This document shows, in pieces, positions 1 through 35,212 of a stretch of DNA of 35,212 bases. The position numbers were made by a program, and so were the translations under genes. The first letter of the stretch is position 1, and each line of letters opens with the position of its first letter. The notes below the pieces were generated by a model. It ran no database searches. It was not told the origin of the DNA and was given only the letters and a program-made list of their open reading frames with translations. Origin of the DNA: a virus; the IMG/VR virus record IMGVR_UViG_3300025289_000016, one strand, 5' to 3'.

Positions 1-75
1 AAAGGTGATAACAATTTAGAATAAAAAGGTGATAACAATTTAGAATAAAAAGGTGATAACAATTTAGAATAAAAA
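1..75 (+). repeat. Tandem array: 3 copies (+3 nt) of the 24-bp unit AAAGGTGATAACAATTTAGAATAA; identical to the last 75 nt of the window
   Basis: Read directly: units at 1-24, 25-48 and 49-72. Bases 1-75 equal 35138-35212. Confidence 0.95.
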
Positions 76-82
76 GGGAAAA

Positions 83-3734: not shown

Positions 3735-3950
3735 ATGGAGAGTGGAATCAAAATAGAGAATGAAAAACAAGCTGAAGATAAACACTCAATGCAGTCGGTT
3801 ACAGCACGCCGACAAGGTCACAATAAGTTAGTCTATGATAAGACAAAGAAAACGATAGTAACTGTTTCGACAGCAGGTTATACAACTGAACCAACTAAAC
3901 CAAAGCTAGTGATACAAGCGACATACTATGTTGACGGAACTGTAAAATAA
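3735..3950 (+). CDS. hypothetical small protein directly upstream of the large terminase (small terminase candidate by position only)
   Basis: AAAGGAGGGAATATG start context. Its stop lies 3 nt before the terL ATG. No motif recognised. Confidence 0.35.
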   Translation: MESGIKIENEKQAEDKHSMQSVTARRQGHNKLVYDKTKKTIVTVSTAGYTTEPTKPKLVIQATYYVDGTVK

Positions 3951-3953
3951 ATT

Positions 3954-5561
3954 ATGAATAACATTGAAAATAAAGTAACAATAAATAATATGGACTTCTC
4001 ACCTATTCCCGGTGTGAAATATGCTCATAATTATGTAGCAATAGTTAAGGATATAAAAGCTAAAAAATTAGATGAAATGTCTATATTCAGATCCTTAATT
4101 TTAAATGATTTATTTTTTATTATTTATTTTGTTATGCGTATAGAAATAATGAATCGTCCCTTTATTATTCAGACATGTCAAGAGGTGGAAAGCGGTCCCA
4201 AAGATTTTACATTAGATGTCTGGGCTAGAGAACATGGGAAAACATCTATTATTACGATAGCAGAAACTATACAAAACGAATTAAAATATCCAGAAAAATC
4301 AACAATGTTACTTTCCTATGTTAAAGCGATTAGTAAAAAATTTTTATTTGAAATTAGAAACTATTTTGAAAATTCGGAGTTCTTAAAAGCTTGTTTTCCT
4401 GATGTTTTATATCAGGATCCATGTATAGAATCTAGATTGTGGAATTTAGATGATGGCTTAATTTTAAAAAGAAAGACAGGAAGAAAAGAACCAAATATAT
4501 ATGCTGCTGGGCTTATTGAAGGTATGCCTACTAGTTTACATTGTGAATTTTTGGTATTTGATGACATTGTTACAGAAGACATGGCTAAAAGTCTTGATAT
4601 AATGAATGAAGTAAAAAACAAGTTTGATTCTGCTCAAAATCTAGGTGCTGACGGTGGTTCACATAGAGTTTTAGGGACTTATTATGCTCATAATGATCCC
4701 TTAACATATATCAGAGATAAGGTAGATGCAAATGGAAAGCCATTATATTTACTTAGACTTAAACCAGCTACCAATGATGGTACTGAAAGCGGTCTACCTG
4801 TATTTTTATCTCAAAAAAGATTGAATGATTTAAAATTTACTAAAACTTTTTATTGTCAGCAATTACTGGATCCTACTCCAAGAGGGGTTCGTAAATTTGA
4901 TAGTAAATTTCTTCAAGAAATAGAACACAAAGATATTCCTACAAATGTATATAGATTTATGGCAATTGATCCTGCTGGTGATATAGGAAACGACCCACTA
5001 GCAGAAGACTCCTGGGGAATAATGGTAATAGGGATAAAACCCGAAGACGAAAATATATCTATGAGCAATATTTATATCATGGATGCTACTATATGCCCAT
5101 TTAGAAGAGTTGAGGCGTTAGAGGAAATTTGTAGAATGTATATAAGAAACCCAGAGATATTGCAGGTTGGAGTTGAAAAAATAGGGCTTTCTACTATGGA
5201 AATACATGTTGCAGAGACACTTTTAAAATATGGAAGAAGAATATCCCTTGAAAACAAAACATTATTTTTATTGAGACCTAAAGGAAGAAATAAAGCAGTC
5301 CGCATTGAAGATGCTATTTCTAAACCATTATATGGTTCTAAATTGTTTATATCTAAAAACATAGATAATGTTTATAGACAACGAATAAAAAACGAATTGG
5401 ATATGTTTCCTAGATGGAAGGATGATGCTCTTGATGTGCTTTCTTATTTCTATGATATGATAATTGAAAATAAATATTGGTTAAAACCTAAGCAAAAAAT
5501 AAATTATAATTTATTTAAAAAGACTACATATCCTAGAAACGAATCTTGGATGGTAAGTTAA
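3954..5561 (+). CDS. terL: terminase large subunit
   Basis: 535 aa. Walker-A-like AREHGKTS, Walker-B-like FLVFDDIVTED, and a C-terminal RNaseH-like nuclease segment (MAIDPAGD...). The portal gene starts 1 nt downstream. Confidence 0.85.
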   Translation: MNNIENKVTINNMDFSPIPGVKYAHNYVAIVKDIKAKKLDEMSIFRSLILNDLFFIIYFVMRIEIMNRPFIIQTCQEVESGPKDFTLDVWAREHGKTSIITIAETIQNELKYPEKSTMLLSYVKAISKKFLFEIRNYFENSEFLKACFPDVLYQDPCIESRLWNLDDGLILKRKTGRKEPNIYAAGLIEGMPTSLHCEFLVFDDIVTEDMAKSLDIMNEVKNKFDSAQNLGADGGSHRVLGTYYAHNDPLTYIRDKVDANGKPLYLLRLKPATNDGTESGLPVFLSQKRLNDLKFTKTFYCQQLLDPTPRGVRKFDSKFLQEIEHKDIPTNVYRFMAIDPAGDIGNDPLAEDSWGIMVIGIKPEDENISMSNIYIMDATICPFRRVEALEEICRMYIRNPEILQVGVEKIGLSTMEIHVAETLLKYGRRISLENKTLFLLRPKGRNKAVRIEDAISKPLYGSKLFISKNIDNVYRQRIKNELDMFPRWKDDALDVLSYFYDMIIENKYWLKPKQKINYNLFKKTTYPRNESWMVS

Positions 5562-5562
5562 A

Positions 5563-7344
5563 ATGAATGAAAAAGAAATATTAGAACAAGCTCTTGAAGA
5601 TTTTAAAGAAGCTGAAACAGCTGGAGCAGATAATAGAAATATAGCTCTAAAATGTATTAAATTCGTTGATGGAGATCAATGGGACGATTCTATAAGAAAA
5701 GAAAGAGAACAAGATAATAGACCCTGTTTAACTTTAAATAAATTACGAAAATTTGTTAAGGAAGTGTCTGGTGATATTAGGCAGAATAAAATATCTCCAA
5801 AGGTGAGACCTGTGGATGATAATGCAGATGTTGCGGGAGCAAAAGTGAGAAATGAATTAATAAGACATATTGAACAAAACTCTCTTGCAGACGATGCCTA
5901 CGATAATGCTGTTGAGCAAGCCCTTGATGGTGGTTTCGGATATTGGAGAATTATAACTGAATATGCAGAAGATGGTTTTGAACAAGATATTAAAATAAAA
6001 CGAATACCTAATAGATTTACTGTTTATTTAGATTGCTCCTCCCAGGAGTATACTTGTGAGGATGGTAGATATGCATTTATAAGTAATGTAATGAAGGAAA
6101 GAGAATTTAAAACAAAATATAAAAGTAAAATTCCTGCTGATTGGTCTATGCAAAGCGTTGGAGAAGGAAAAGAAGGTTGGTTCCTGGATAATAAAGTTAG
6201 ATTAGTAGAATATTTTTGGAAAGAACCAACAACTAAGGAAATTGCTCAATTGTCAGATGGTAGTATTGTTGATTTTAATAAAAAAATAGAACAAGCCATT
6301 GAAGGAACAGGTTTAGAAATAATTAAAAGGAGATCTGTTAAAACTCATAAAGTAATGTGGGCAAAACTTAGTGGTGATAAAATATTAGAGGGTCCTAATG
6401 AAATCCCCTCTAAATATATTCCTATAGTCCCCGTCTATGGTCATGAAGTAAATATTGAAGGTAAACGATATTATAGGGGATTAATATATGATGCTCTGGA
6501 TGCCATGAGAATGTATAATTATTGGAGAACTCATGCAACTGAAATTGTTGCTCTTGCCCCAAAAGCACCATTTTTAATAACCCCTGAACAGATACAAGGG
6601 CATGATGCCATGTGGCTGGATGCTAATAAAAAGAATTATCCATATTTACTCTATAATCAAATTCCTGGGTTAGCTAAACCCACTAGAGAAGGACAAACAC
6701 AAATACCAACTGCGGTAGTAAATGAATCTAATTTTGCCAATCTGGATATTAAAGATACTATAGGTATGTATGAAGCTTCTTTGGGGCAGGTATCTAATGA
6801 ACGGTCTGGAAGAGCTATTTTAGCAAGACAATCAAGATCCGATACTATTACTTATACATTTATTGATAATTTTGCGAAATCAATTACTTATACCTCTAAA
6901 CTATTATTAGATATGATGCCTAAAGTCTTTGATACGGAAAGAGTATTGAGATTATTAGGAGAAGATGGAAAAGAACTTATGTTACCTCTTAATAAAACAA
7001 TTAAAGATGCTACAACAGGAGAGAATATAATTATAAATGATTTGTCCCAGGGGAAATATGATTTAGTACCTACTAGCGGACCAAAATATCTAACTAGACG
7101 ATTAGAGGCTGCTGCAAGTATGTTAGATTTCTTACAGATGGTTCCTGTGGCTGCACCTGTAATTGCACCAAGACTTGCTAAAATGATGGACTGGCCGGAG
7201 GCTGTTGAAATAGCTCAAGAGTTAAATAAACTATTTGGGGCAACTAAAGAACAGGAAACTACACCAGAAGAAAAAGAGGAGATAGGGGGATCTAGTTCAC
7301 CACCCATGCAGGGGAGCGAAAGAACTAGTGAATATATAAAATAG
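5563..7344 (+). CDS. portal protein
   Basis: 593 aa. The N-terminal IALKCIKFVDGDQWD...RPCLTLNKLRKFV pattern is typical of P22/SPP1-class portals. It sits between terL and the scaffold gene. Confidence 0.85.
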   Translation: MNEKEILEQALEDFKEAETAGADNRNIALKCIKFVDGDQWDDSIRKEREQDNRPCLTLNKLRKFVKEVSGDIRQNKISPKVRPVDDNADVAGAKVRNELIRHIEQNSLADDAYDNAVEQALDGGFGYWRIITEYAEDGFEQDIKIKRIPNRFTVYLDCSSQEYTCEDGRYAFISNVMKEREFKTKYKSKIPADWSMQSVGEGKEGWFLDNKVRLVEYFWKEPTTKEIAQLSDGSIVDFNKKIEQAIEGTGLEIIKRRSVKTHKVMWAKLSGDKILEGPNEIPSKYIPIVPVYGHEVNIEGKRYYRGLIYDALDAMRMYNYWRTHATEIVALAPKAPFLITPEQIQGHDAMWLDANKKNYPYLLYNQIPGLAKPTREGQTQIPTAVVNESNFANLDIKDTIGMYEASLGQVSNERSGRAILARQSRSDTITYTFIDNFAKSITYTSKLLLDMMPKVFDTERVLRLLGEDGKELMLPLNKTIKDATTGENIIINDLSQGKYDLVPTSGPKYLTRRLEAAASMLDFLQMVPVAAPVIAPRLAKMMDWPEAVEIAQELNKLFGATKEQETTPEEKEEIGGSSSPPMQGSERTSEYIK

Positions 7345-7370
7345 TGATAACAATTTAGAATAAAAGGAGA
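7343..7370 (+). promoter_or_regulatory. Single copy of the conserved cassette (A)GTGATAACAATTTAGAATAAAAGGAGA upstream of the scaffold gene
   Basis: 27 of 28 nt identical to the copies at 8211 and 34662. It overlaps the portal stop run TAG-TGA-TAA. The ATG follows 9 nt after GGAGAG. Confidence 0.7.
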
Positions 7371-7379
7371 GAAATAAAT

Positions 7380-8210
7380 ATGGAGATAGAAAAAAATACA
7401 GAGGAAACTCAAAAAGATGTGAATAAGACGATAGAAACGAGGGATCCTTCTGCAGAGTCCGTAAAAAGTGAGACCCAGGACACCTCACAAACCGAATCGG
7501 ACGATCCTGCCGCAGCTACTACTCAAGAAACAGAGGAAGTAACAGAAGAAATCAAAAAAAAGAGTGGAGTAGCAAAAAGGATTGATAAATTGGTCAAGGA
7601 AAGAGAAACTCTTAGGAGAGAACGGGATGAATTATTAAAACAACTTGAAACTACAACAAAACATCCTGCGGGTAAACCAATAGTCCAAGATTTTGAATCG
7701 TATGACCAATATGTAGATGCTCTTACAGAGTGGAAAATAGAGCAAAAAGAAAAAGAAAAGATACAGCACCAAATAGCGATAGATAGAAAAGAACATCATC
7801 AAAGGTTATTGGAGGAATTTAAAGAAAACTCAACACATTTCAAAGAGAAGAATAAGGATTTTGATGAAGTAGCTTTCGCAAAAGAAGTTCCTTATACAGA
7901 AGAAATGGCAGAATTAGTGCTTACTTCTAAAAAGGGACATGAGATAGCTTATTATCTTGGGAAAAATATAGATGAAGCTACACGAATGGCAGCTTTACCA
8001 CTTCACTTATTAGCTCGTGAAATTGCTAATCTTGAGATAAAATTTTCAATTCCAATATCACCTAAGAATATATCGCAAACTCCGGCTCCCATTTCACCAT
8101 TAGGCAGTTCAGGCGAAACTCTCAATAAAGAGCTTTCAGATAAAATGTCTACTGAGGAATGGATAAAGGAGCGTAACAAGAAACAAAATAAAATTCTAAG
8201 AATAGTATAA
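7380..8210 (+). CDS. scaffolding protein
   Basis: Acidic, K/E-rich, coiled-coil-like 276-aa protein located between portal and coat genes. Confidence 0.7.
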   Translation: MEIEKNTEETQKDVNKTIETRDPSAESVKSETQDTSQTESDDPAAATTQETEEVTEEIKKKSGVAKRIDKLVKERETLRRERDELLKQLETTTKHPAGKPIVQDFESYDQYVDALTEWKIEQKEKEKIQHQIAIDRKEHHQRLLEEFKENSTHFKEKNKDFDEVAFAKEVPYTEEMAELVLTSKKGHEIAYYLGKNIDEATRMAALPLHLLAREIANLEIKFSIPISPKNISQTPAPISPLGSSGETLNKELSDKMSTEEWIKERNKKQNKILRIV

Positions 8211-8238
8211 GGTGATAACAATTTAGAATAAAAGGAGA
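8211..8238 (+). promoter_or_regulatory. Single copy of the cassette GGTGATAACAATTTAGAATAAAAGGAGA upstream of the major capsid gene
   Basis: Starts at the base after the scaffold stop codon. The ATG is at 8247. Confidence 0.7.
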
Positions 8239-8246
8239 AAAATTTT

Positions 8247-9443
8247 ATGCCAAATACACTTTTAACATCAACTATCGTTACTAGAGAGGCTTTGAGAATT
8301 TTACACGAAAAACTCTCTTTTATCGGTACAATTAATCATGAATATAGTAAGGAATATGCCATGACAGGAGCAAAAATAGGTTCAAGTTTGAAAATCAGGA
8401 AACCAAATAGATACACAATTAGGAACGGAGCTTCTATGACTCCTCAGGATATTACTGAAACTTCGGAAACTCTTACCATGGCTACCCAGAAGGGCATAGA
8501 CCTGGATTTTACATCTGTAGATCTAACCTTATCGTTGGACGATTTTTCAAAACGGATAATTCAACCTGCTATGGCTGTCCTTGCAACAAATATAGAAAAA
8601 GATGTATTTAATGTCTACAAGGAGGTATATAATCTTGTAGGAAGTCCAGGAACTACCCCTAGTACTCTCAAGGTATTTCTAGATGCAAGAACTAAATTGA
8701 ATCAGTTTGTAGCTCCAAAAGATAATAATCGCTGTGTTCAGATTGATTCTGTTGCTGGGGGGGCAACAATAGATACCTTGAAGGGGTTATTTCATTCAAG
8801 TCAGCAGATTGAGGAACAATATAGAGAAGGTATGATGGGGAAAACCGCTGGATTTAACTTCTACGAAAATGATGTAGTCCCGGTTCATACAAATCTATTA
8901 CAAGCAGGAACTCCTCTTGTTAATGGACCTAACCAAACAGGAGCAAGTCTTATAACAGATGGGTGGACAGCTAGCACCACAATAGCTCAGGGAACTGTAT
9001 TTACATTAGCAGCAGTATATGCGGTTCATCCAGAAACACGAGTTGCTTACCCCTTCTTACAACAGTTTGTAGTAACTGCGAATGCTACTGCTGATGGTTC
9101 AGGTAATGCAACATTATCAATTAGTCCATCTATAACCACTAGTGGGGCTATACAAACTGTTAATGCTTCACCAGCGGAGAATGCAGCTTTAACTTTAGTA
9201 GGAAGTGCAAGTACTGCATATACACAACATCTAGCTTATCATAGAGACGCTTTTGCTTTTGTATCAGCTGACCTTGAAATGCCTCAAAATAGAGATTTCT
9301 CAGCAAGAGAGGTATATGATGGTATCAGTATGCGAATTGTTAAGGATTATGCAATATCAACTGATACATTTCCTTGTAGAGTAGATGTTCTGTATGGATA
9401 CAAATGTATTAGACCAGAATTAGCGGTTAGGATTATAGGATAA
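8247..9443 (+). CDS. major capsid (coat) protein, P22-coat-like
   Basis: 398 aa, immediately after the scaffold gene. The N-terminal TREALRILHEKLSFIGTINHEY..GAKIGSSLKIRKPNRY resembles the gp5-type coat N-arm as I remember it. Confidence 0.8.
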   Translation: MPNTLLTSTIVTREALRILHEKLSFIGTINHEYSKEYAMTGAKIGSSLKIRKPNRYTIRNGASMTPQDITETSETLTMATQKGIDLDFTSVDLTLSLDDFSKRIIQPAMAVLATNIEKDVFNVYKEVYNLVGSPGTTPSTLKVFLDARTKLNQFVAPKDNNRCVQIDSVAGGATIDTLKGLFHSSQQIEEQYREGMMGKTAGFNFYENDVVPVHTNLLQAGTPLVNGPNQTGASLITDGWTASTTIAQGTVFTLAAVYAVHPETRVAYPFLQQFVVTANATADGSGNATLSISPSITTSGAIQTVNASPAENAALTLVGSASTAYTQHLAYHRDAFAFVSADLEMPQNRDFSAREVYDGISMRIVKDYAISTDTFPCRVDVLYGYKCIRPELAVRIIG

Positions 9444-9451
9444 AGTAAATT

Positions 9452-9763
9452 ATGAATTTATTTACTTGCAAAATAGATAGATGGGGTATTGTATCTATCG
9501 CTCTAAATATAGCTTCTGTGGCAATTAATACAACAGCGGAACAGACTTTTACCATCCAGGGGTTGCAAACAGGAGATATGGTTTTTGTAAATAAACCTTC
9601 TCTTAATGCGGGACTTGGAATAGTTAATGCAAGAGTAAGTGATGCAAATACATTAGCAATTACTCTTGTTAATGCAACAGGGGCCGCAATAGATCCTGGA
9701 TCAGAAACTTATCTTGTGTTGTGGATAAGACCTGAGCGTACTCAAAGTATTGCACAGGAATAG
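9452..9763 (+). CDS. small capsid-associated protein (possible decoration protein)
   Basis: Follows the coat gene by 8 nt. All-beta-like sequence (TFTIQGLQTGDMVFVNKPS...ANTLAITLVNATG). Followed by a terminator. Confidence 0.4.
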   Translation: MNLFTCKIDRWGIVSIALNIASVAINTTAEQTFTIQGLQTGDMVFVNKPSLNAGLGIVNARVSDANTLAITLVNATGAAIDPGSETYLVLWIRPERTQSIAQE

Positions 9764-9787
9764 AGCTAGGTAGATATGAATATTATC

Positions 9788-12540: not shown

Positions 12541-13707
12541 ATGGGACTTTTAACTAGAATTAAAATTTGGATTTCAGGAGAGAAACTTTATGCCTCTGAT
12601 TTGAATGCAGAATTTAATAATATTTTAAATAATTTAGACCACACTAAAATAGAAGACGAATCTACCAATATAACTGCCATGAGAGCACTTGCGGATCCCT
12701 ATCCCGGTGGAGCAGAAAGTTTAGCAACCGATTCACAAGACGAAATTCATAGATTACGATACCTCTTAAAACAATTAACACAAACTACTCAATGGTATAT
12801 ATATCCCGATTTAGTCACTAAAACAGCTGCATATACTGCTACCCTAAACGATAAAATAATTCTCTGCGATGCTACAGCTGGAGCTTTTACTATAACCCTA
12901 CCGACTGCGGTAGGTAATAGAGATAAACGATTTATTATTAAAAAGATAGATTCTTCTACTAATACAGTAACAATAGATGGGAATGGTGCTGAAACTATTG
13001 ATGGTGTAGCAACAAAGATATTACAGTATCAGTATCAAAGTATAGATATTATTTCAGACAATGCTAATTGGATAATTGTTTATAATATCAATGTAAATGC
13101 GTTAGAAGATTCTGTTGTCACTAAAACAGCTGCCTATACTGCTACCCTAAACGATAAAACAATTTTATGTGATGCTACAACTGCAGCGTTTACCGTAACC
13201 CTACCGACTGCGGTGGGTTGTAAGGGGAAAAAGTTTATCATTAAAAAGACAGATTCCACTATAAATACAGTAACAATAGATGGGAATGGTGCTGAAACTA
13301 TTGATGGTGTAGCAACAAAAATATTAACAAATCAATATTATGGTGTTTCAATTATTTCAAATAATACTAATTGGATAATTGAACAAAGCATATTTTCTAC
13401 TAATCTAGTTGCATCTGGTAATATACTTGTTCTATCGAATTCAGTACAAGATATTACTATTTCTACCACAAAAGGAGAGCTTCATTGTTTTTATCTTCAT
13501 TCTATTTGGTGCTCATCTGCTGCTACTCAATCATATACCTATGGTGTTGATGTTACAGGTGGTGAACTAGTGAGTCCAAGTGTTCACTCTTATATAATAA
13601 GGACAGGAACAGTAGGCGCCGAAAGTGTATACCTTAGGATTGTTAATGGACATACTGTTAATTCTTTTACTATTGAATATAGAGTATATGAGATAATTTT
13701 ATTTTAA
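12541..13707 (+). CDS. tail fibre/spike protein with an internal tandem domain duplication
   Basis: GAGGAGAATTTATG start. Two ~101-aa repeats (VVTKTAAYTATLNDK...NWII). Confidence 0.6.
   Translation: MGLLTRIKIWISGEKLYASDLNAEFNNILNNLDHTKIEDESTNITAMRALADPYPGGAESLATDSQDEIHRLRYLLKQLTQTTQWYIYPDLVTKTAAYTATLNDKIILCDATAGAFTITLPTAVGNRDKRFIIKKIDSSTNTVTIDGNGAETIDGVATKILQYQYQSIDIISDNANWIIVYNINVNALEDSVVTKTAAYTATLNDKTILCDATTAAFTVTLPTAVGCKGKKFIIKKTDSTINTVTIDGNGAETIDGVATKILTNQYYGVSIISNNTNWIIEQSIFSTNLVASGNILVLSNSVQDITISTTKGELHCFYLHSIWCSSAATQSYTYGVDVTGGELVSPSVHSYIIRTGTVGAESVYLRIVNGHTVNSFTIEYRVYEIILF
12814..13381 (+). repeat. Direct tandem duplication, period 303 nt (12814-13078 vs 13117-13381), inside the fibre gene
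   Basis: Aligned by eye. Long identical runs such as ACAGTAACAATAGATGGGAATGGTGCTGAAACTATTGATGGTGTAGCAACAAA. Confidence 0.9.
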
Positions 13708-20709: not shown

Positions 20710-20727
20710 AAATTAAAGGAGAATAAA

Positions 20728-21186
20728 ATGGGCATAATAAGTTTAGACATTTTCAAGGGTTTATTTGGTGATAAAGGTTTAGCTGGCGGGGTTGTTGATG
20801 TTCTTCAAAAAACGGGTATATTAAAAGACAATGAGATGATAGAGAAGACAGCAAAAGCCTTACAGGATTATGAACTTTCTCTCAAGGGTAAACAAAACGA
20901 ATTAGAGCAAATTCTATCAGAAGATAGAAAATCTGCCAGGGAAAGAGAAATTGCAACAAAAGATAAAACTCCTCGCAATTTAGCAATAATTGCAATCACT
21001 GGATTTTTTGGTATTCTAATCACTTTAATTTTTGTTACAGTTCCTCCTACAGCCAAAGATGCATTATTGATAATGTTGGGAACGCTTGCAGGTATGGTTA
21101 CTAGTGTAGTTCAATATTATTTTGGAAGTTCATCTGGTTCTTCACAGAAAAATCAGATGATAGATAGACTCTTGAAAGAAAAGTAA
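20728..21186 (+). CDS. holin (3-TM, GTA-holin-like)
   Basis: The charged N-terminal part with SEDRKSAREREIA is followed by hydrophobic segments (LAIIAITGFFGILITLIFV, ALLIMLGTLAGMV). It lies upstream of the endolysin. Confidence 0.5.
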   Translation: MGIISLDIFKGLFGDKGLAGGVVDVLQKTGILKDNEMIEKTAKALQDYELSLKGKQNELEQILSEDRKSAREREIATKDKTPRNLAIIAITGFFGILITLIFVTVPPTAKDALLIMLGTLAGMVTSVVQYYFGSSSGSSQKNQMIDRLLKEK

Positions 21187-21245: not shown

Positions 21246-21259
21246 TTTTATTCTAAATT
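21246..21259 (-). promoter_or_regulatory. Inverted 14-nt half-copy (AATTTAGAATAAAA on the - strand) of the conserved cassette
   Basis: The + strand reads TTTTATTCTAAATT in the 97-nt gap after the holin gene. Confidence 0.5.
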
Positions 21260-21282
21260 TTGGGTATGGAAGGATAGAGGAT

Positions 21283-21519
21283 ATGAAAGAGATATTTATG
21301 AGGGCGCACATTAAAGCATTGTTGGAGAATTCAAATAGTAGTGCAAAAGAATTTTCACCGACAGAGCCATGTTCTATTGAATGGAATACAATGTGTTATA
21401 AATGTAAAAAAACTAATGCAATTCTTCTTCAATGTTTTGAGGATGGGAACCCAACAGAGAAATTCATATGTCAGGAATGTTTGGACAATAGGAAAAAAAA
21501 TGAACCCAGAAAAAAATAA
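21283..21519 (+). CDS. small zinc-ribbon protein
   Basis: CYKC...CQEC pattern. Overlaps the endolysin start by 20 nt. Confidence 0.4.
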   Translation: MKEIFMRAHIKALLENSNSSAKEFSPTEPCSIEWNTMCYKCKKTNAILLQCFEDGNPTEKFICQECLDNRKKNEPRKK

Positions 21520-22556: not shown

Positions 22557-22793
22557 CTACATATACTCCTTTTTTTCTGGTAATAAATCACTGATAGAAA
22601 TTTCTAATTTATTAGCCAACACATAAAGTTTTTCTACAGTAATATTTTTCCTTTTCTTTTCCATAATGCTAATAGCCTGCCTACTGACCCCAAGCACATC
22701 AGCCAATTCTTGTAGTGTATATCTTTTTTTCTTTCTCCAGTAACGTAAAGTAGCAGGAAAGGAAGAAGGCAATCTTATCTTTTTTCTCTTCAT
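22557..22793 (-). CDS. XRE-family helix-turn-helix repressor (CI/Cro-like)
   Basis: YTLQELADVLGVSRQAISIMEKKRKNITVEKLYVLANKLEISISDLL is a canonical HTH_3 pattern. It is divergent from the early genes and has no SD (see promoter 22801..22829). Confidence 0.75.
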   Translation of the reverse strand: MKRKKIRLPSSFPATLRYWRKKKRYTLQELADVLGVSRQAISIMEKKRKNITVEKLYVLANKLEISISDLLPEKKEYM

Positions 22794-22800
22794 AAATATT

Positions 22801-22829
22801 TACTTAACATACTAAAAATCAAATGTCAA
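22801..22829 (-). promoter_or_regulatory. Promoter for the repressor gene: -35 TTGACA, 17-nt spacer, -10 TAAGTA; predicted near-leaderless transcript
   Basis: The - strand reads CTTGACATTTGATTTTTAGTATGTTAAGTAAATATTTATG. The -10 ends 7 nt before the ATG. It shares a 17-nt core with 34031-34047 and 34073-34089. Confidence 0.45.
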
Positions 22830-27007: not shown

Positions 27008-27353
27008 AAAATCCATTTCCTTAAAACCAAAGGAGAATAAAAATAACAAAAATAATGCTGCCTTTAATATATTTTCTGAGACTATAAAAGAAATAATAAA
27101 AAATTATTTAGTAAAATATGGATACAACGGATTATTTAATGCTGACATTGGATGTGGATGTGTAATAGAAGATATTTGTCTTGACGATAGTAATAGAATC
27201 TTGGGTTGTGAACCAGCGTATAAAGTTGTTTGTGATAGAGAAAGATGCCCAAGAGTTAACGATGATGAAATTGGTTGTGGGGGTGAAACGGGGGGTAATT
27301 GTTTCACTACAATAAAACCAAAGGAGAATAAAAATGAACACAGAAAAGATTGA
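26982..27353 (+). CDS. Cys-rich protein flanked by an internal 22-nt direct repeat
   Basis: ORF track. CGC...C...C...C..C...CGG..GGNC pattern. KPKENKN occurs twice. Confidence 0.4.
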   Translation: MTKKIKEDKKSISLKPKENKNNKNNAAFNIFSETIKEIIKNYLVKYGYNGLFNADIGCGCVIEDICLDDSNRILGCEPAYKVVCDRERCPRVNDDEIGCGGETGGNCFTTIKPKENKNEHRKD

Positions 27354-29177: not shown

Positions 29178-29594
29178 TTATTTATAAATTTTTTCCCTAT
29201 CGAATTTTTGTTGTGTACTCCTCGCATATTCCTCGCTTCTTATATCACAAATATCTCTATCAATATCGTGATGAGCTGCTTCATGAACAAGCATCCTAGC
29301 TTTTTCTTCTTTTGTGAGGTTTTCTACAACATAAATTGTCCTATAACAATATAGATGAACCATTACATGTTCACACTTAAAACAAAATTCATATTTGGCA
29401 TAACCCCACTCATTTTTACCAAGGTATCCTGGCTCTACCCATTTTATCTCGTCAGCTCTTATCAATATCCATTGAGTCCAATATTTTCCAAGAACTTCTT
29501 GGACTTCTTGAGGAATCTCTTTAGTTGTATCAGTGGGACAGGAACAAGAAATTAGCATTAGAAATATAAAATATCCTATTATAAGTTTTTTCAT
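29178..29594 (-). CDS. lipoprotein with HExxH metallopeptidase-like motif
   Basis: MKKLIIGYFIFLMLISC gives a signal peptide plus lipobox L-I-S-C. MLVHEAAHHDID lies near the C-terminus. ATGA overlap with the upstream gene. Confidence 0.55.
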   Translation of the reverse strand: MKKLIIGYFIFLMLISCSCPTDTTKEIPQEVQEVLGKYWTQWILIRADEIKWVEPGYLGKNEWGYAKYEFCFKCEHVMVHLYCYRTIYVVENLTKEEKARMLVHEAAHHDIDRDICDIRSEEYARSTQQKFDREKIYK

Positions 29595-29878
29595 TTAATT
29601 TTCCTTTCCTTGCAATTTTCACAGGATAAAAACCCATCCCCAAAAACTTCTTCCTGCCTAATTTCACATTGTCGCAATTGGATAATCTCTCCCCTCTCAT
29701 ACCATTTCTTACATTTCACTCTCATTGTATTCTCACTAAATATTCTATTCCCAACTTTTTTTCCTCCTTGATATCTCGCTTCCATACACTCATCACAAAT
29801 ACCATGTGAAATATCAGGATCCGAAAGTGGTTCTTTCTCACCTATTTCTTTTTTGCAATACATACAAATTACTCTCAT
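29591..29878 (-). CDS. small zinc-ribbon protein
   Basis: CMYC...HGICDEC...CENC pattern. GAGGAGGCGATTATG start. Confidence 0.45.
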   Translation of the reverse strand: MRVICMYCKKEIGEKEPLSDPDISHGICDECMEARYQGGKKVGNRIFSENTMRVKCKKWYERGEIIQLRQCEIRQEEVFGDGFLSCENCKERKIK

Positions 29879-29929
29879 AATCGCCTCCTCTTTTTCTCCG
29901 CCCCCGCAACCGTCCGCAGGTGGCAGGTA

Positions 29930-29965
29930 ACAAAAAGAGGGATAACAACTATATGTTGCTATCCC
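29930..29965 (-). terminator. rho-independent terminator (- strand)
   Basis: The - strand reads GGGATAGCAAC-ATATA-GTTGTTATCCC followed by TCTTTTTGTT. It overlaps the stop codon of 29959..30147. Confidence 0.65.
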
Positions 29966-30147
29966 TTAAATTTTACTCGTCTGTATCTCTCGGCATTGCC
30001 TCTGCTATCTCCTGTCCAATGTCCACGGCGTGCTGAAACACCCTCCCCCTGTGGGTATAGAAATACGAGGTTACATCTACCAACAAATCCCAAATCCGTA
30101 ATCTCTTTACACTTCTCTGTTATTCTATTTTTCGTTTTTATATTCAT
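29959..30147 (-). CDS. hypothetical 62-aa Arg-rich protein (weak call)
   Basis: The ATG lies 1 nt after the radC-like stop, with no clear SD. Unusually GC-rich for this genome. Confidence 0.25.
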   Translation of the reverse strand: MNIKTKNRITEKCKEITDLGFVGRCNLVFLYPQGEGVSARRGHWTGDSRGNAERYRRVKFKG

Positions 30148-30148
30148 T

Positions 30149-30565
30149 TTAATGAGATAACTCACTCTGTAAACTATAATACCCATTCCAGGTAATTATA
30201 ATAAAATCCATAACGGGGATCCCCAAAATCTTTCCTGCCTCAACTAATCTTTTCCATAGTGTAATATCATCTTCCGAGGGGGTATTTTCCCCCGACGGAT
30301 GATTATGAACAACAATTATTCCTACCGAGCCATTCATAATTGCCTTTTTAAAAGTTTCTCGTGGATGCACTGGGCAACTATTTACGGTTCCCATTGCCAC
30401 AAGCTCCTTTTCTATAATTTTATTTCTTGTATTGAGGTGAATAGCCCATAGACATTCCCTATCTGCCCTAGCTTCTGTGGGCATTATTTTGAAAATATCC
30501 TCTGCGGTTATAATCTTCTCCCCTTTTGCTTCCTTAACCTCTAATAATTTTATTTTCATCTGCAT
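30149..30565 (-). CDS. radC: RadC-like JAB/MPN-domain protein
   Basis: HNHPSGENTPSEDD is an intact JAMM HxHx7Sx2D motif. The start is set at MQMKIK (AAAGGGGA SD). The track's 50-aa N-terminal extension has no support. Confidence 0.8.
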   Translation of the reverse strand: MQMKIKLLEVKEAKGEKIITAEDIFKIMPTEARADRECLWAIHLNTRNKIIEKELVAMGTVNSCPVHPRETFKKAIMNGSVGIIVVHNHPSGENTPSEDDITLWKRLVEAGKILGIPVMDFIIITWNGYYSLQSELSH

Positions 30566-30854
30566 TTCCCCTTTTTTCCAGCCTGCCCTCTCGGGTCGGG
30601 TCTTACAGGATTTTTTAATTTTATTCTTTTTATATTGCAAGTTCCGTGCCAAGTTTTCAAGAACCAAAAAATAACACAATTTCAATGAGTTAGCCTTCCG
30701 CAAGGACATACGCAATTATCAATCAGGACAGAAAATTAGCCCCCACTTTTACCATATTTGAGAAAAATCACCACAAACCCTTGAATTATCTACTCTTTTT
30801 GAAAGGCTAGAAAACTGTCCTCTGGAAGCCAACTTCTTAATATGGTATAGAATG

Positions 30855-30894
30855 GACAGGATATGACAGGATATGACAACATAGGACAATAATC
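30855..30894 (+). repeat. 10-bp iterons GACAGGATAT x2, then degenerate GACAACATAG and GACAATAATC
   Basis: Read directly. Confidence 0.85.
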
Positions 30895-30930
30895 TAATAC
30901 TCTTGATATATCTTAGTATGTCTATATTCC

Positions 30931-30970
30931 TATACAACATTATACAACATTATACAACATTATACAACAC
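30931..30970 (+). repeat. 10-bp iterons TATACAACAT x3 plus TATACAACAC
   Basis: Read directly. Confidence 0.95.
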
Positions 30971-30983
30971 AGCACAGGACAGG

Positions 30984-31003
30984 TTATCAACAGGTTATCC
31001 ACA
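30984..31003 (+). repeat. TTATCAACA and TTATCCACA, 11-bp phasing (ACAGGTTATC[AC] units)
   Basis: Read directly. TTATCCACA equals the consensus DnaA box. Confidence 0.85.
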
Positions 31004-31094
31004 ACCTTTCAATACAGGACAGTAGAAGAGGACTAAACAACAACGGTAGAACAAGATAGGATAGGAGTTGGATCCACCCCTTTTATGTTTCTAC

Positions 31095-31125
31095 TTATCC
31101 ACAGGTTATCCACAGGTTATCCACA
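31095..31125 (+). repeat. Three head-to-tail TTATCCACA boxes at 11-bp spacing (TTATCCACAGG units)
   Basis: Boxes at 31095-31103, 31106-31114 and 31117-31125. Confidence 0.95.
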
Positions 31126-31381
31126 GCTAGGAAATGGTTTACATAATACTAGTTATGGGAAGCAAAACAAGTAACCCCCTAGAAAATAAGAGAAAATTCA
31201 ACGATACTTAATGACTTTGCTCTCCCAATGGCGTAATAATTACCCAATATTCTCCTTTCACACAAACAAGAGGGGGGGTGGGGCCGGGTCGTGGAGTGAA
31301 TTATAATATATCCAACCGTTCTTTGGTTGCGAAATAAAAATTGAGAATTTTGCGATCTTCTATTTTCTGTTTCAATATTTA

Positions 31382-32268
31382 TCACAGGCTTAATTGTAAA
31401 CTACCCAATATTTCTTCTTGAATGGATTTGTATCCTAAATCTATTCCTATGCCAATTCTACCCAATTCTTCTGCAACTTTAATGGTTCTTCCACTACCAC
31501 AAAAGGGATCCAATACTATATCTCCTTTTTTTGTGGAACATAATACCATTCTTTCTACCAACTTTTCTGGAAACATAGCATTTGGTTAGATATAAACCAG
31601 GTATCTCCGGGATTTTTACCCTTATACATTTTATCAATGATATATCTTTTCCCTTCATCGTAATTATCCATTTCTTTTTGAGATGCTTTATGTTCCCTTG
31701 TTTCTTTATAAGGTTCTCTCACAGCGTCCAGATTAAAATAATAATCTTTGTTTTTTACAAACATAAAAACAAACTCAAACTTTTTTGAAAATCGGTTTTT
31801 GACTGATTCTGGAAGGCAATTGGGTTTTATCCAAACAATATCGTTTCTCAACGACCATTTTCCTTTATCAACCAAAGCTATAGCTATTCTGTGAGGTAAA
31901 AGATTTTTACACCCGGGAAGATACTTTTTATCTCCACCTCTTAAACAATGTATATCATTTTTACCACCATATTTAGATTTATCTTGCCTTCCAATTATTC
32001 CTATTCTATTATTCCAACTATCACCCAAATTAAGCCAGAAAATACCATCCTTTTTTAATACCCTATATGCTTCTTTACACCACAGTAGGGTATGTTCAAT
32101 ATAGGAATCAATGTTAGATTCTAATCCATATTGACCTTGCCAACCATCTATCACTACTTCAGGTATATCATATCGCCGAAGGCTCCAATAGGGGGGACTT
32201 GTAGTAATCGCTTGGACGCTTTCATCTTCGAGGGGCCATTTTTCAAAACTTGACTGATGGTATATCAT
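31382..32268 (-). pseudogene. beta-class (N4-C/N6-A) DNA methyltransferase interrupted by a 1-nt frameshift
   Basis: Motif IV TSPPYW is in ORF 31555..32268. Motif I VLDPFCGSGRT and FPEKL are in ORF 31382..31576. The frames change around 31586-31587. Confidence 0.75.
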
Positions 32269-32410
32269 AATTTAGTTTTTTCCTTAAAAATAGTCTAGTG
32301 ATGGCATTCAAACACCCCCAAATTTTGCGTTTCCGTTGCTTACCACAAACTTTTTGATATTCATGCCATATTTCCTTCCAAGCACTTTAAAAAATCTCGC
32401 CATACCGCTT

Positions 32411-33628
32411 CTAATCACAAAAAAGGTCTAAAATTTTAGGGACATCTTTAATATTGATCTTAATCTTTTTATTCTCTAAAATCTTCATCGTTTCCTCAGC
32501 TTGGCGGTTCTGTTTTTCTTTAGCCTGTTCTGTAGATAATTCTTGAATTTCTTTATAACCTAATTCTTGTGATTTTTGTTTCCGTTTCTCATACCTCTCA
32601 TCTCTTGCTTTCCTCTGCTCTGGAGTCAATGGCTTAATGGGATCCCCATTGTAATTATAAATCACATCGGGGCCGGTGAAAGTTTTCTGAGTTTTAATTT
32701 TCGTCCAATTGAGGTAGTTTTGGAATTTCTCGCTATAAAGAGTAGTAGGATTGAGGTTATGCTTCATTTTTGGATCCTTATACCATGCTTGGATCATATT
32801 AGTATGAACGGTTTTATACTGCTCAATTTCACGGTATCCTTCTTTCCAACGGTCCCGGATTAGTCGCTTAACAGCTGGAATGGGTTTATAATCAGTGCCT
32901 AATTTGGAATTGAGGTCAATAAGAATATCCCGGCAGTAGGCAGGTAACCATTCTTTAGGAAGTTCTTGGGGCATATCTTGGGTTGAAATCTTCACAGGAA
33001 GTTCACAAGAAGGTTCTTGAGAAAATGAAGGTTGGTAAGAATAGTCTTCAAGACTATCTTCTAGCTCATCGGTAGGTTCTTCTGTAGAAAGGTTAGGTGA
33101 ATTTATTGGTTCTTGAGAATTTGGTGGTTCTTGGGGGGGTGGGGGTTGGTTTTGGGTTTGGATTGGATTAGAAAAAAAAGGACTTTCTTTTTCTTTATTA
33201 ATTTCTTTTTCTTTATTATTACTATCTTCTTCTTTATTACTAGTACTATCTATATTACTATATGATGACATTTTAGCAGAATGGCGTTTTAGCACATTGG
33301 GACTTTGGCAGATTGGGATTATTGCAGATTGCGGTTTTGGTGAAGTAAAATTTCGGTTATATCTGATATAATATTCCATTTTCCCATCTTGTCTTTTTTG
33401 TCGTTTTAAATATCCGTTTTTTTCTAATTCCTTTAAACCTTCTCTAGTTGCTCGGATTCCATCTTTACTTTCTTTTACTATTCTATCAATTGCAAAATTC
33501 CAATCATCAGGTTTGGAATAAAGATAAAGAAATAAACCCTTTGCTTTCCATGATAAATTTTTATCAATTGCAATCTCATTTTTTATTTGCGTAAATCCAA
33601 CTTCTTGCTTTCTAAGTATTTGTTTCAT
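32411..33628 (-). CDS. replication organiser / initiator (N-terminal winged-helix, Pro-rich linker, C-terminal Phg_2220_C/DnaD-like domain)
   Basis: GFTQIKNEIAIDKNLSWKAKGLFLYLYS...GIRATREGLKELEKNGYL fits a wHTH. ILIDLNSKLGTDYKP...RLIRDRWKEGY...W..DPKM..NLNPTTLYS.KFQNYLNW matches the conserved phage C-terminus domain as I remember it. AGGAGG SD. Confidence 0.65.
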   Translation of the reverse strand: MKQILRKQEVGFTQIKNEIAIDKNLSWKAKGLFLYLYSKPDDWNFAIDRIVKESKDGIRATREGLKELEKNGYLKRQKRQDGKMEYYIRYNRNFTSPKPQSAIIPICQSPNVLKRHSAKMSSYSNIDSTSNKEEDSNNKEKEINKEKESPFFSNPIQTQNQPPPPQEPPNSQEPINSPNLSTEEPTDELEDSLEDYSYQPSFSQEPSCELPVKISTQDMPQELPKEWLPAYCRDILIDLNSKLGTDYKPIPAVKRLIRDRWKEGYREIEQYKTVHTNMIQAWYKDPKMKHNLNPTTLYSEKFQNYLNWTKIKTQKTFTGPDVIYNYNGDPIKPLTPEQRKARDERYEKRKQKSQELGYKEIQELSTEQAKEKQNRQAEETMKILENKKIKINIKDVPKILDLFCD

Positions 33629-33790: not shown

Positions 33791-33866
33791 TGGTGGAGAT
33801 AACCGGGATTGAACCGGTGGCCTTCTGGTTGCAAGCCAGACGCTCTCCCAACTGAGCTATACCCCC
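33791..33866 (-). tRNA. tRNA-Ala (anticodon UGC), CCA encoded
   Basis: The reverse complement folds by hand into a 76-nt cloverleaf: acceptor GGGGGTA/TATCTCC with G3:U70, D arm GCTC/GAGC, anticodon stem TCTGG/CCAGA with loop CTTGCAA, T arm ACCGG-TTCAATC-CCGGT, then ACCA. Confidence 0.9.
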
Positions 33867-34017: not shown

Positions 34018-34046
34018 ATTATGTTATTCTAAAAATCAAAAGTCAA
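34018..34046 (-). promoter_or_regulatory. Promoter facing tRNA-Ala and the replication block: -35 TTGACT, 17-nt spacer, -10 CATAAT
   Basis: The - strand reads ACTTGACTTTTGATTTTTAGAATAACATAATG. Confidence 0.55.
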
Positions 34047-34073: not shown

Positions 34074-34102
34074 TTGACATTTGATTTTTGACATGATATT
34101 TT
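34074..34102 (+). promoter_or_regulatory. Promoter facing 34149..35137: -35 TTGACA, 17-nt spacer, -10 TATTTT; an extended -10 (TGGTATGAT) also lies at 34117-34125
   Basis: CTTGACATTTGATTTTTGACATGATATTTT. Its core is identical to the repressor promoter core at 22814-22830 (opposite strand). Confidence 0.5.
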
Positions 34103-34148: not shown

Positions 34149-34682
34149 ATGCCTCTGATGAAAGACTTAAAGGGGGATAATCGTATACCACAGATAGATT
34201 TTCAGGATGAGGACATTCAATCTCTCTCCCCAGTAGATAGAGCATATATTACCCTTCGGCGTCAGGGGTGGAATAAGAAAGAAATATCTCTTGCCCTTCA
34301 TATGAGTCATAATTATCTTATCACAAAAGAAAGGGACCTTTCAAAGAAGTATGATCTTACGGATCCAAAACTTGTCCGTTTAGCCTATCGGGCGCTTTTA
34401 AATATTTTACATGGCAAGACATGGGGGGGGATAGATAAAATCAAGGACTCTACAGTCCTTGGAGCTGTCTCGGAAATATATTCCAGAGCCCAGCCAGAAG
34501 TTCATCGGGAAGAAGTGTTTACCCATTCATTTTGTCATATAGCCCTAGACCAATATAAAAACAATAAGATAATTGATATTGATATTAATCAAGCAATTGG
34601 AAAGGGATATTGTTATCCCCTTGCATTATATCCACAAGACGAGATTGTATTGGCATTAGAAGGTGATAACAATTTAGAATAA
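34149..34682 (+). CDS. HTH protein with a sigma-70 region-4 / LuxR-like segment (candidate transcription regulator; small terminase is an alternative)
   Basis: LSPVDRAYITLRRQGWNKKEISLALHMSHNYLITKERDLSKK resembles a region-4-type HTH. The last six codons (GDNNLE-stop) are supplied by the conserved cassette. Confidence 0.45.
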   Translation: MPLMKDLKGDNRIPQIDFQDEDIQSLSPVDRAYITLRRQGWNKKEISLALHMSHNYLITKERDLSKKYDLTDPKLVRLAYRALLNILHGKTWGGIDKIKDSTVLGAVSEIYSRAQPEVHREEVFTHSFCHIALDQYKNNKIIDIDINQAIGKGYCYPLALYPQDEIVLALEGDNNLE

Positions 34683-34689
34683 AAGGAGA
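34662..34689 (+). promoter_or_regulatory. Single copy of the cassette GGTGATAACAATTTAGAATAAAAGGAGA
   Basis: 28 of 28 nt identical to 8211-8238. Confidence 0.7.
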
Positions 34690-34953
34690 ATGTTTCACGT
34701 GAAACATCGGAAAAAAGGAGTAACAAAATATAAATTGGCAGAAGATGGTGAGGGATTATTGCTTTGTTTTAAACCTAAGCAAAGAACATTTTATCATGTT
34801 CATGAGGACGAATTAACTGAAAAAGAGAAAGAAATAAGAGACTATCTTCTCTCACATAAAACAAAAAAAGCAGTCTGGTGTTATCCGAATCAATGTAGAG
34901 GAGTATGGTGGAGTCTTAAAAACCATAAAAAGCAAGAGATGACAACAGTTTAG
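34690..34953 (+). CDS. hypothetical protein (true start may be GTG 34699)
   Basis: ORF track. ATG 34690 abuts GGAGA with no spacing, whereas GTG 34699 has about 10-nt spacing. The start region is an 18-bp palindrome. Confidence 0.4.
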   Translation: MFHVKHRKKGVTKYKLAEDGEGLLLCFKPKQRTFYHVHEDELTEKEKEIRDYLLSHKTKKAVWCYPNQCRGVWWSLKNHKKQEMTTV

Positions 34954-34960
34954 AATAAAA
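34938..34960 (+). promoter_or_regulatory. Degenerate cassette copy GATGACAACAGTTTAGAATAAAA (no GGAG)
   Basis: 19 of 23 matches to the cassette. Its TAG is the stop of 34690..34953. The ATG at 34961 follows immediately. Confidence 0.5.
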
Positions 34961-35137
34961 ATGCCGGAATATAAAAGTAAAACCAAACATGGGGTTGTAT
35001 ACCAAGTTACAAAAGGTAAATCAGGAAATTATACTTGTGACTGCCCTGGTCATAAATATATAGGTGACTGTAGACACATTGCATTAGAAAAGCGGAAATC
35101 GGGTTATTTGGGGAAAGGTGATAACAATTTAGAATAA
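34961..35137 (+). CDS. 58-aa SWIM-type zinc-finger protein (not in the ORF track)
   Basis: CDCPGHKYIGDCRH fits CxCx(n)CxH. The ORF runs into the first array unit and ends GDNNLE-stop. Confidence 0.5.
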   Translation: MPEYKSKTKHGVVYQVTKGKSGNYTCDCPGHKYIGDCRHIALEKRKSGYLGKGDNNLE

Positions 35138-35212
35138 AAAGGTGATAACAATTTAGAATAAAAAGGTGATAACAATTTAGAATAAAAAGGTGATAACAAT
35201 TTAGAATAAAAA
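35114..35212 (+). repeat. Tandem array: 4 copies (+3 nt) of the 24-bp unit AAAGGTGATAACAATTTAGAATAA at the window end
   Basis: Units at 35114, 35138, 35162 and 35186. The last 75 nt equal the first 75 nt. Confidence 0.95.

Follow-up and report, generated by a model that had tools for sequence, protein, structure and literature searches.

A young repeat laid out like a translation-start cassette lies before scaffold and coat in an uncultivated P22-like phage

Introduction

Repeats located near gene starts in phage genomes, such as the start-associated sequences (SAS) and the T1-type repeats, have been on record for years, but a mechanism is still lacking. Here we analyze a short repeat, denoted the cassette, in the virus record IMGVR_UViG_3300025289_000016, a stretch of 35,212 nucleotides (nt; the window) that represents the circularly assembled ~35.1-kb genome of an uncultivated podovirus-like (P22-like) phage with 34% G+C. 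The cassette is real, young and spreading, and we tentatively interpret it, with somewhat less than even confidence, as a Shine-Dalgarno (SD)-anchored, cis-acting intercistronic translation-initiation cassette on a long rightward polycistronic mRNA.

In phage T7, the class III promoters phi9 and phi10, which are conserved over ~23 bp, precede the scaffold and major capsid genes and raise their expression. The leader of T7 gene 10 and the stabilizing SD (STAB-SD) of Bacillus cryIIIA represent single leaders that combine an unstructured A/U-rich region with a strong SD, or provide an upstream SD-like site that holds ribosomes and protects the mRNA.

The SAS of cluster K mycobacteriophages are 13 bp long (GGGATAGGAGCCC) and occur in 11-19 copies, upstream of non-structural genes only, with conservation across three subclusters; their function is unknown, and a translational role has been proposed (Pope et al. 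2011, PMC3203893). The T1-like phages Stevie and TLS carry 16-21 asymmetric repeats of 21-22 nt, of unknown function, ~76 nt upstream of starts (PMC4319613, PMC11447400). The stoperators of phage L5, 13 bp in length and present in dozens, are bound by a known immunity repressor (PMC9283540). The promoter-early stem-loops (PeSLs) of T4-type phages consist of a strong sigma-70-like early promoter and a terminator stem-loop; in hyperplastic regions, they delimit replacements as well as indels (Arbiol et al. 2010, PMC2839356).

Cassette copies and their positions

The 28-mer GGTGATAACAATTTAGAATAAAAGGAGA is present as exact copies at 8211-8238 and 34662-34689 and with 27/28 identity at 7343-7370, as noticed in a previous sequence-only reading; the identity between the coat copy (8209-8239) and the copy at 34660-34690 in fact extends to 31 nt. 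The degenerate copy at 34938-34960 noted in the same reading was recovered as well, with 20 of 23 positions matching, and the next-best match anywhere in the window has seven mismatches, the level observed in shuffled sequences. The earlier judgment that the repeat is far beyond chance holds, with no match to the 28-mer in 100 dinucleotide shuffles. Altogether, the repeat, 23-28 nt in length, occupies five loci, namely, those of scaffold, coat and three small genes. Every full copy (0-3 mismatches) lies on the plus strand, in the orientation of the genes, and ends 0-9 nt before a start codon; as pointed out previously, two of the co-oriented downstream genes, scaffold and coat, are those with the highest protein need. 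The copies are as follows (ORF, open reading frame).

7343..7370, plus strand: single cassette, 27/28, from the portal stop to the scaffold start ATG at 7380; holds the SD GGAGA at 7366-7370
8209..8239, plus strand: single cassette, 28/28, from the scaffold stop TAA at 8208-8210 to the coat start ATG at 8247
34660..34690, plus strand: single cassette, 28/28, at the end of ORF177, upstream of ORF87
34938..34960, plus strand: degenerate copy GATGACAACAGTTTAGAATAAAA, 20/23, overlapping the end of ORF87 and abutting the ATG at 34961 of ORF58
35114..35212, plus strand: tandem array of 4.1 perfect units AAAGGTGATAACAATTTAGAATAA; unit 1 supplies the final codons and stop of ORF58 (...GDNNLE*)
1..77, plus strand: continuation of the tandem array beyond the contig join (3.2 units), with AAAAAGGGAAAA-ATG of ORF 83-286 directly after the last unit
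21246..21260, minus strand: possible partial inverted core AAATTTAGAATAAAA of uncertain status, a single occurrence in the 96-nt gap between genes 20728-21186 and 21283-21519

The copy at 7343 shares its first base with the portal stop TAG (7342-7344), the scaffold stop directly adjoins the coat cassette, and ORF177 terminates at the internal TAA of the cassette (34680-34682). GGAGA lies inside the repeat at three loci. The proposed placement of the copies, each occupying the space from an upstream stop to the downstream SD and start, is confirmed, with two corrections: no SD follows the copy at 34938, and ORF87 likely starts at GTG 34699 rather than at ATG 34690, because the corresponding junction in a sister lineage (see below) shows a TGA overlapping a GTG start.

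A perfect 18-nt palindrome, ATGTTTCACGTGAAACAT, unique in the window, lies directly 3' of the cassette at 34690-34707 and covers the ORF87 start. Sister contig L094 has this palindrome as well; a role as an operator or as a start-occluding hairpin is conceivable. On the minus strand, at 8193-8221 and 34644-34672, the cassette-derived TTGTTA is located 17 nt from a TAGAAT or TACAAT in the end of the upstream gene; these antisense promoter-like calls are weak (9/12) and probably due to chance.

Layout and folding of the cassette

The unit carries TGA, TAG and TAA across the three reading frames, an arrangement found in 4.7% of random 23-mers of equal composition; a coding repeat was rejected given the stops in all frames. 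The unit opens with the SD-like AAGGTGAT, and the single copies close with AAAGGAGA, located 8-9 nt before the start; the predicted duplexes with the anti-SD have energies of -9.9 and -8.7 kcal/mol, respectively, calculated with a generic anti-SD from which that of the host may differ. The motif of the upstream SD-like site, GAGGTGAT, is the real SD of gene 10217. The SDs of the genes for the large terminase (TerL) and portal are weak (-3.5 and -6.9 kcal/mol). Single units and their junctions fold no better than shuffles (minimum free energy of 0 to -5 kcal/mol), and the array folds worse than shuffles (z = +1.46). Rfam contained no match to the cassette or the array, even at E<=10. A CRISPR-like or solitary-repeat RNA was rejected because there are no spacers and no structure.

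This layout is best accommodated by a translation or RNA element, one of the functions suggested in the sequence-only reading. In the mechanism that we tentatively favor, the cassette would act, from 5' to 3', through the three-frame stops (TGA, TAG, TAA), the strong SD-like AAGGUGAU, ~16 nt of open A/U-rich RNA and the SD AAAGGAGA. Ribosomes coming from weakly initiated upstream cistrons (terminase, portal) would be released at the stops, and the A/U-rich leader together with the extra SD would serve as a standby, tethering or protection site. Initiation on scaffold and coat would be raised as a result, providing a step-up from portal within a single transcript. In P22, scaffold and coat are needed at ~20-30 times the copy number of portal.

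Another kind of RNA function, that is, an endoribonuclease processing site, or a decoy or antitoxin-like (ToxI-type) repeat RNA produced from the array, appears very improbable. Such a function would fit a short direct-repeat array transcribed in the sense direction, the single-stranded, A/U-rich AAUUU, which is similar to RNase E-type sites, and the start (AGGTGAT) and TAGAA-like end of the unit, which we take to be ToxI-like. However, the unstructured 24-nt unit is well under the 34-45 nt of the structured type III antitoxin units, no ToxN/AbiQ-like domain is found in the neighboring ORFs, Rfam yields no match, and a decoy does not account for the single copies at capsid genes.

The same genome contains further stereotyped repeats, 14-23 nt in length, at ribosome-binding sites. 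Nearly identical regions of this kind at 27022-27044 and 27313-27335, and also at 20715, 25839 and 26969, form a second family (TAAAACCAAAGGAGAATAAAAAT, and AAAGGAGAATAAA(A)ATG). The degree to which gene-start regions are stereotyped here is unusual.

Tandem array

At both ends of the window, the 24-nt unit AAAGGTGATAACAATTTAGAATAA forms a 100%-perfect tandem array. The window ends overlap by 75 nt, which implies a single array of ~4 units between ORF58 and ORF 83-286. Other assemblies, 99.5-100% identical to the window, span the array, with 2 units in four ENA contigs (from four assemblies) and 3 units in two JGI contigs. The array is real and not a physical genome end, and its copy number varies (2, 3 or ~4 units), some assembler collapse being possible. 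Because JGI, ENA and Logan assemblies all show the cassettes and the array, an assembly artefact was rejected. Assemblies of the same phage break at differing places, which is consistent with a circular or permuted genome.

The sequence-only reading described single copies before scaffold, coat and two small genes; these copies are all present, and what escaped it is the array, its copy-number variation and the presence or absence of the cassette in close relatives. The array is located between three small genes with a canonical promoter (34074-34102) and the long structural operon, and together with the neighboring copies it places four to six cassette sites within 550 bp beside ORF177, which encodes a helix-turn-helix (HTH) protein.

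Comparison with a sister lineage and more distant relatives

A sister lineage, ~96% identical to the window and represented by contigs L001, L066, L070, L076 and L094, is informative at four junctions. At the scaffold-coat junction, the cassette is conserved at 28/28 positions, with differing flanking bases on both sides, a conservation that is not statistically significant at ~3% background divergence. At the portal-scaffold junction, the sister retains just TAGAATAAAAGGAGA, and the 5' 19 nt of the cassette are gone. The ORF177/ORF87 junction reads GCATTAGAAGGAGAATGTTTCACGTG in the sister, a clean 23-nt absence of the cassette, and the sister ORF173 terminates in a TGA overlapping the GTG start. 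At the ORF87/ORF58 junction, the sole two differences in 101 nt fall in the core (TAGAATAAAA in the window vs TAGAGTGAAA in the sister, where the complete copy reads TAGAGTGAAAA).

Microhomologies, AAGG on one side and AAGGAGAA on the other, flank the 23-nt indel, and precisely this interval is covered by the 31-nt stretch shared with the coat copy, a pattern that would be expected from SD-anchored template switching or short-patch conversion. Under the translation-start reading, SD-anchored template switching or short-patch gene conversion would have transferred the cassette to further ribosome-binding regions, and slippage of the unit would have generated the 2-4-unit tandem array; both events are envisaged because the unit starts and ends with nearly the same octamer (AAAGGTGA ... 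AAAGGAGA). The coat leader is the likely master copy, being the sole full copy common to both lineages.

The same observations raise the alternative that the cassette has no function of its own and is simply a coat leader copied by homology-facilitated recombination and amplified by slippage, young and harmless. The repeat is limited to one species-level group, and relatives with 59-67% coat identity lack anything similar; presence or absence and copy number are polymorphic at very low divergence; the indel boundaries fall within SD microhomology; and the identity between copies is no higher than recent events would give. We give this explanation little credence, however, because the loci common, at least in part, to both lineages are precisely scaffold and coat; because 28-nt direct repeats around the essential scaffold gene invite lethal deletions, so that useless copies should be counter-selected; and because the two substitutions in the window shift the degenerate copy toward the consensus.

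The analogy to PeSLs and module shuffling drawn in the sequence-only reading does not survive these comparisons: the cassette has no stem-loop, and homology to the sister is continuous through the scaffold and coat cassettes, with a single high-scoring segment pair running through 3947-9452. The mosaic breakpoints between the window and the sister are located at 3947 (upstream of TerL) and 9452/9767, with no cassette at either, so the expectation that cassettes mark module boundaries is not borne out. Directly after the coat gene, ORF103 represents a 314-nt insertion (9453-9766) relative to sister contig L001, between AGTAAATT and AGGTAGAT, and likewise lacks a cassette.

Beyond the sister lineage, relatives with 59-67% coat identity, including nine fetched contigs, contain no comparable repeat, and their coat leaders are unrelated. 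Scans with 20-22-mers recovered sister contig L001 alone among viral contigs and nothing among GTDB genomes; in metagenomes, they yielded three sister contigs and eight contigs of six unrelated kinds. The latter (L065, L068/74/75, L069/72, L071 and L073) were dismissed as chance matches of A/T-rich words, in mixed contexts, some within coding sequences, and without protein similarity. In a ninth contig, L067 (Ga0154020_10059758; 19% G+C), positions 500-840 comprise ~17 tandem 19-nt units (GATTTAGAATAAAGATRMC) with 19-20 nt in common with the cassette core; this contig also carries a separate array of five 25-nt units and has no protein similarity to the window. The L067 array represents an unexplained coincidence or a distant relation.

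Promoter features and the candidate regulator ORF177

The sequence-only reading considered a booster promoter. Sigma-70 promoter scans gave no plus-strand call at any cassette or in the array. The -35 position upstream of TAGAAT reads AATAGT or TATATA, with no -35 hexamer and no TGn. TAGAAT ends 4 nt before GGAGA, so that a start ~7 nt downstream would fall inside the SD; at ORF58, a start derived from TAGAAT would lie at or after the ATG. In its sigma-70 form, the booster promoter is therefore a poor fit to the cassette. The evident promoters of this phage are canonical, TTGACATTTGATTTTT...TGnTA, and include three copies of a promoter-like sequence, two with a TGn extended -10.

22814-22829, minus strand: promoter-like TTGAC(A/T)TTTGATTTTT
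34031-34046, minus strand: promoter-like TTGAC(A/T)TTTGATTTTT
34074-34089, plus strand: promoter-like TTGAC(A/T)TTTGATTTTT

These three copies are probably early promoters and possibly share an operator; the copy before the Cro/CI-like gene would yield a nearly leaderless mRNA. With a canonical promoter 60 nt upstream of ORF177, the genes ORF177, ORF87 and ORF58 are already served by a promoter. No plus-strand terminator was predicted between 286 and 7343, which implies that read-through transcription already reaches scaffold and coat. Approximately 50 of the ~53 major ORFs of the window were searched in at least one library (Pfam and/or PHROGs); these searches detected no RNA polymerase or complete sigma factor, a result that disfavors a T7-type version of the booster promoter, and no integrase or other lysogeny module.

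ORF177 belongs to a family of ~100 small phage proteins, the profile of which matches the LuxR-type HTH domains of NarL/EL222 (E=0.003). Some members match Sigma70_r4_2 or GerE, and the sigma-region-4-like HTH of ORF177 itself is weak; a BLASTP comparison of ORF177 with GerE returned nothing. The PHROG matches of the family are weak and divided between regulators and, for a few members, small terminases. The homologues of ORF177 head runs of small genes and are not beside TerL in the contigs seen. The AlphaFold model of ORF177 has a predicted local distance difference test score of 48 and is unusable. Judging from these sequence matches, ORF177 could be the cassette binder in the models that operate at the DNA level.

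One such model is a late or booster promoter in which TAGAAT is the -10 element and GGTGATAAC (~-25 to -17) an activator box replacing the -35, with ORF177 as a possible activator; the array would be the main late promoter region before the structural operon, and the extra copies would boost scaffold and coat. The P1 Lpa-type late promoters similarly have a phage activator box in place of the -35. In favor of this model, TAGAATAAAA is the sole part invariant across every locus; the array separates the small genes with a canonical promoter from the structural operon; ORF177, the first gene in the operon, comes from an HTH-matching family and has homologues that likewise head small-gene runs; and the placement is like that of T7 class III promoters. 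We nonetheless consider this model a serious yet not a likely one: the cassettes lack the promoter hallmarks present in the phage's canonical promoters; a start at approximately the A of GGAGA would produce leaders of 6-12 nt that lack the SD visible before the genes; no RNA polymerase or complete sigma factor was detected; and copies are gained or lost between close lineages with the downstream genes retained.

Alternatively, the cassettes might be DNA sites for a phage protein other than an activator, forming a stoperator-like roadblock, a repressor site, a packaging (pac/cosB-like) site or a loading site, with the cluster of 34662, 34938 and the array as the main site, to which an oligomeric HTH protein, for instance ORF177, would bind co-operatively. 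The clustering of sites by ORF177 fits this scenario, tandem direct repeats are typical of protein-binding arrays, asymmetric repeats in one orientation in short gaps over stops and starts are hallmarks of L5 stoperators and T1/TLS repeats, and a few ORF177-family members match small-terminase PHROGs. Yet, there are only five loci, not dozens; with no lysogeny module found, silencing has no obvious use; neither a pac site nor a repressor explains outlying copies exactly at scaffold and coat; ORF177 homologues are found at the heads of small-gene operons, not by TerL; the replication-origin repeats are elsewhere (30855-31126); and LuxR-type HTH proteins usually bind inverted repeats, of which the cassette has none. 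On this evidence, DNA sites of this kind are unlikely.

It is doubtful, more generally, that the cassette is the cis site of a dedicated phage factor, for example, ORF177 or the Cys/His proteins ORF58 and ORF87, that coordinates virion-gene expression. If true, this would be an undescribed late-control system with a site that is joined to the ribosome-binding region, multiplies into arrays and moves from one start to another on a micro-evolutionary scale. ORF58 contains a SWIM-like CxC...CxH zinc motif (YTCDCPGHKYIGDCRH) and ORF87 has paired Cys/His residues; cassettes flank both genes, and neither protein has a Pfam match.

Genomic setting and additional features

The plus strand carries nearly all genes from 34149 through position 1 to 22536. 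The genes for RadC, a DNA methylase and a replication initiator (HTH_36 and Phg_2220_C domains) are found in a minus-strand block at 29178-33628. The genes relevant to the cassettes and their surroundings are as follows.

3954-5561, plus strand: large terminase (TerL)
5563-7344, plus strand: P22-type portal, stop TAG at 7342-7344
7380..8210, plus strand: scaffolding protein gene, downstream of the cassette at 7343 (phrog_8865, 3.7e-47)
8247..9443, plus strand: P22-type major coat protein gene, downstream of the cassette at 8211 (PF11651)
22557-22793: Cro/CI-type HTH (HTH_3) protein, by domain match
32411-33628, minus strand: replication initiator gene
34149..34682, plus strand: ORF177, first gene of the rightward operon, with an N-terminal LuxR/sigma-region-4-like HTH
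34961-35137, plus strand: ORF58

The coat protein is at most 41% identical to that of any deposited phage, and megablast of window positions 1-25000 against deposited phages found no match. ORF248 is an ORFan; it and ORF177 have no relatives among viral contigs. A 1671-aa protein has no Pfam, PHROG or PDB-sequence match, and a search for RadC homologues did not reveal the host.

Four short tandem repeats are clustered at 30855-31126: GACAGGATAT (2.4 copies), TATACAACAT (3.9 copies), ACAGGTTATCA (2.3 copies) and TTATCCACAGG (2.9 copies), the last of which includes the DnaA-box consensus. Located ~1.3 kb from the initiator gene, this region probably represents the replication origin. Replication-origin iterons were rejected as an identity for the cassette array because the origin-like features near the initiator gene are at 30855-31126; the array itself is ~1.5 kb from the far (5') end of that gene, past the divergent promoter region and inside the rightward operon. 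The divergent regulatory region contains a tRNA-Ala(TGC) gene (33791-33866, minus strand), an exact 37-nt fragment of which has no match in 185,579 reference genomes. The tail-fibre-like ORF 12541-13707 includes a 303-nt internal tandem duplication at 12814-13381 (1.9 copies, 84% identity), and a similar ~291-nt duplication is present in relative L090 (18028-18470). In L090 (65% coat identity), TerL (4281-6743) carries an intein-like insert with Hom_end_hint and LAGLIDADG matches and is 820 aa long vs 477 aa in the otherwise matching contig L091 (3542-4975).

Weighing the translation-start reading

Several observations weigh against a translation-start cassette. The degenerate copy has no SD behind it, and the last array unit precedes the weak SD AAAGGGA (-5.3 kcal/mol), which implies that the cassette is not always coupled to an optimal ribosome-binding site. 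The sister has the scaffold and ORF87 genes without a full cassette, so any effect is dispensable. TAGAATAAAA, the only element that does not vary at any window locus or in the truncated sister scaffold junction, resembles a -10 element. The tandem array is not demanded by translation and needs slippage as an extra explanation. The intact coat copy in the sister and the duplex energies are to be read with the reservations given above, that is, background divergence and a generic anti-SD.

The locus offers three handles on the function of such repeats: a natural with/without pair at two junctions in ~96% identical lineages; a tandem array of population-variable copy number; and the portal-to-scaffold step, where a large jump in protein output is required within one operon. 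If the cassette raises translation, a strong capsid leader can be copied to other genes by SD-anchored gene conversion, and the cassette may be a compact portable part combining a three-frame stop, a standby site and an SD. If it is a promoter or a protein site instead, it represents a new late-control motif. Practical relevance is modest, given an uncultivated phage with no identified host.

Comparison with described systems

The cassette works, or at least looks, most like SAS, yet belongs neither to SAS nor to the T1-type repeats. As with SAS, it is a short asymmetric repeat, nearly always in one orientation and a few nt before starts, that holds an SD core together with conserved bases unable to pair with 16S rRNA, with the upstream stop sometimes inside. 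It differs from SAS in its length of 23-28 nt, in its five loci that include scaffold and coat, in the tandem array and in the polymorphism between near-identical lineages; it is found only in the window species and the ~96% sister, and has no sequence similarity to GGGATAGGAGCCC. The T1/TLS repeats and L5 stoperators share with the cassette a phage-specific, asymmetric and intergenic character and an orientation with transcription, whereas tandem arrays have not been reported for either.

The resemblance to T7 phi9/phi10 consists in an identical repeat of 23-28 nt preceding scaffold and coat; however, the T7 promoters need a single-subunit RNA polymerase, none of which is detectable here, and leave a long leader, whereas the cassette runs into the SD. 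With the T7 gene 10 leader and STAB-SD, the cassette shares the open A/U-rich leader and the strong SD before the major capsid gene, or the extra upstream SD; those are single leaders, not dispersed identical repeats or arrays. PeSLs are comparable as short repeated intergenic cassettes with a presence that varies between close phages, but the cassette has neither such a promoter nor a stem-loop, and gene-content breakpoints do not coincide with it. ToxI-like antitoxin arrays consist of folding repeats of ~34-45 nt beside a ToxN gene, in contrast to the unstructured 24-nt unit here. The literature compared here did not show three features of the cassette, namely, its tandem array, its location before scaffold and coat, and its documented gain or loss between near-identical genomes.

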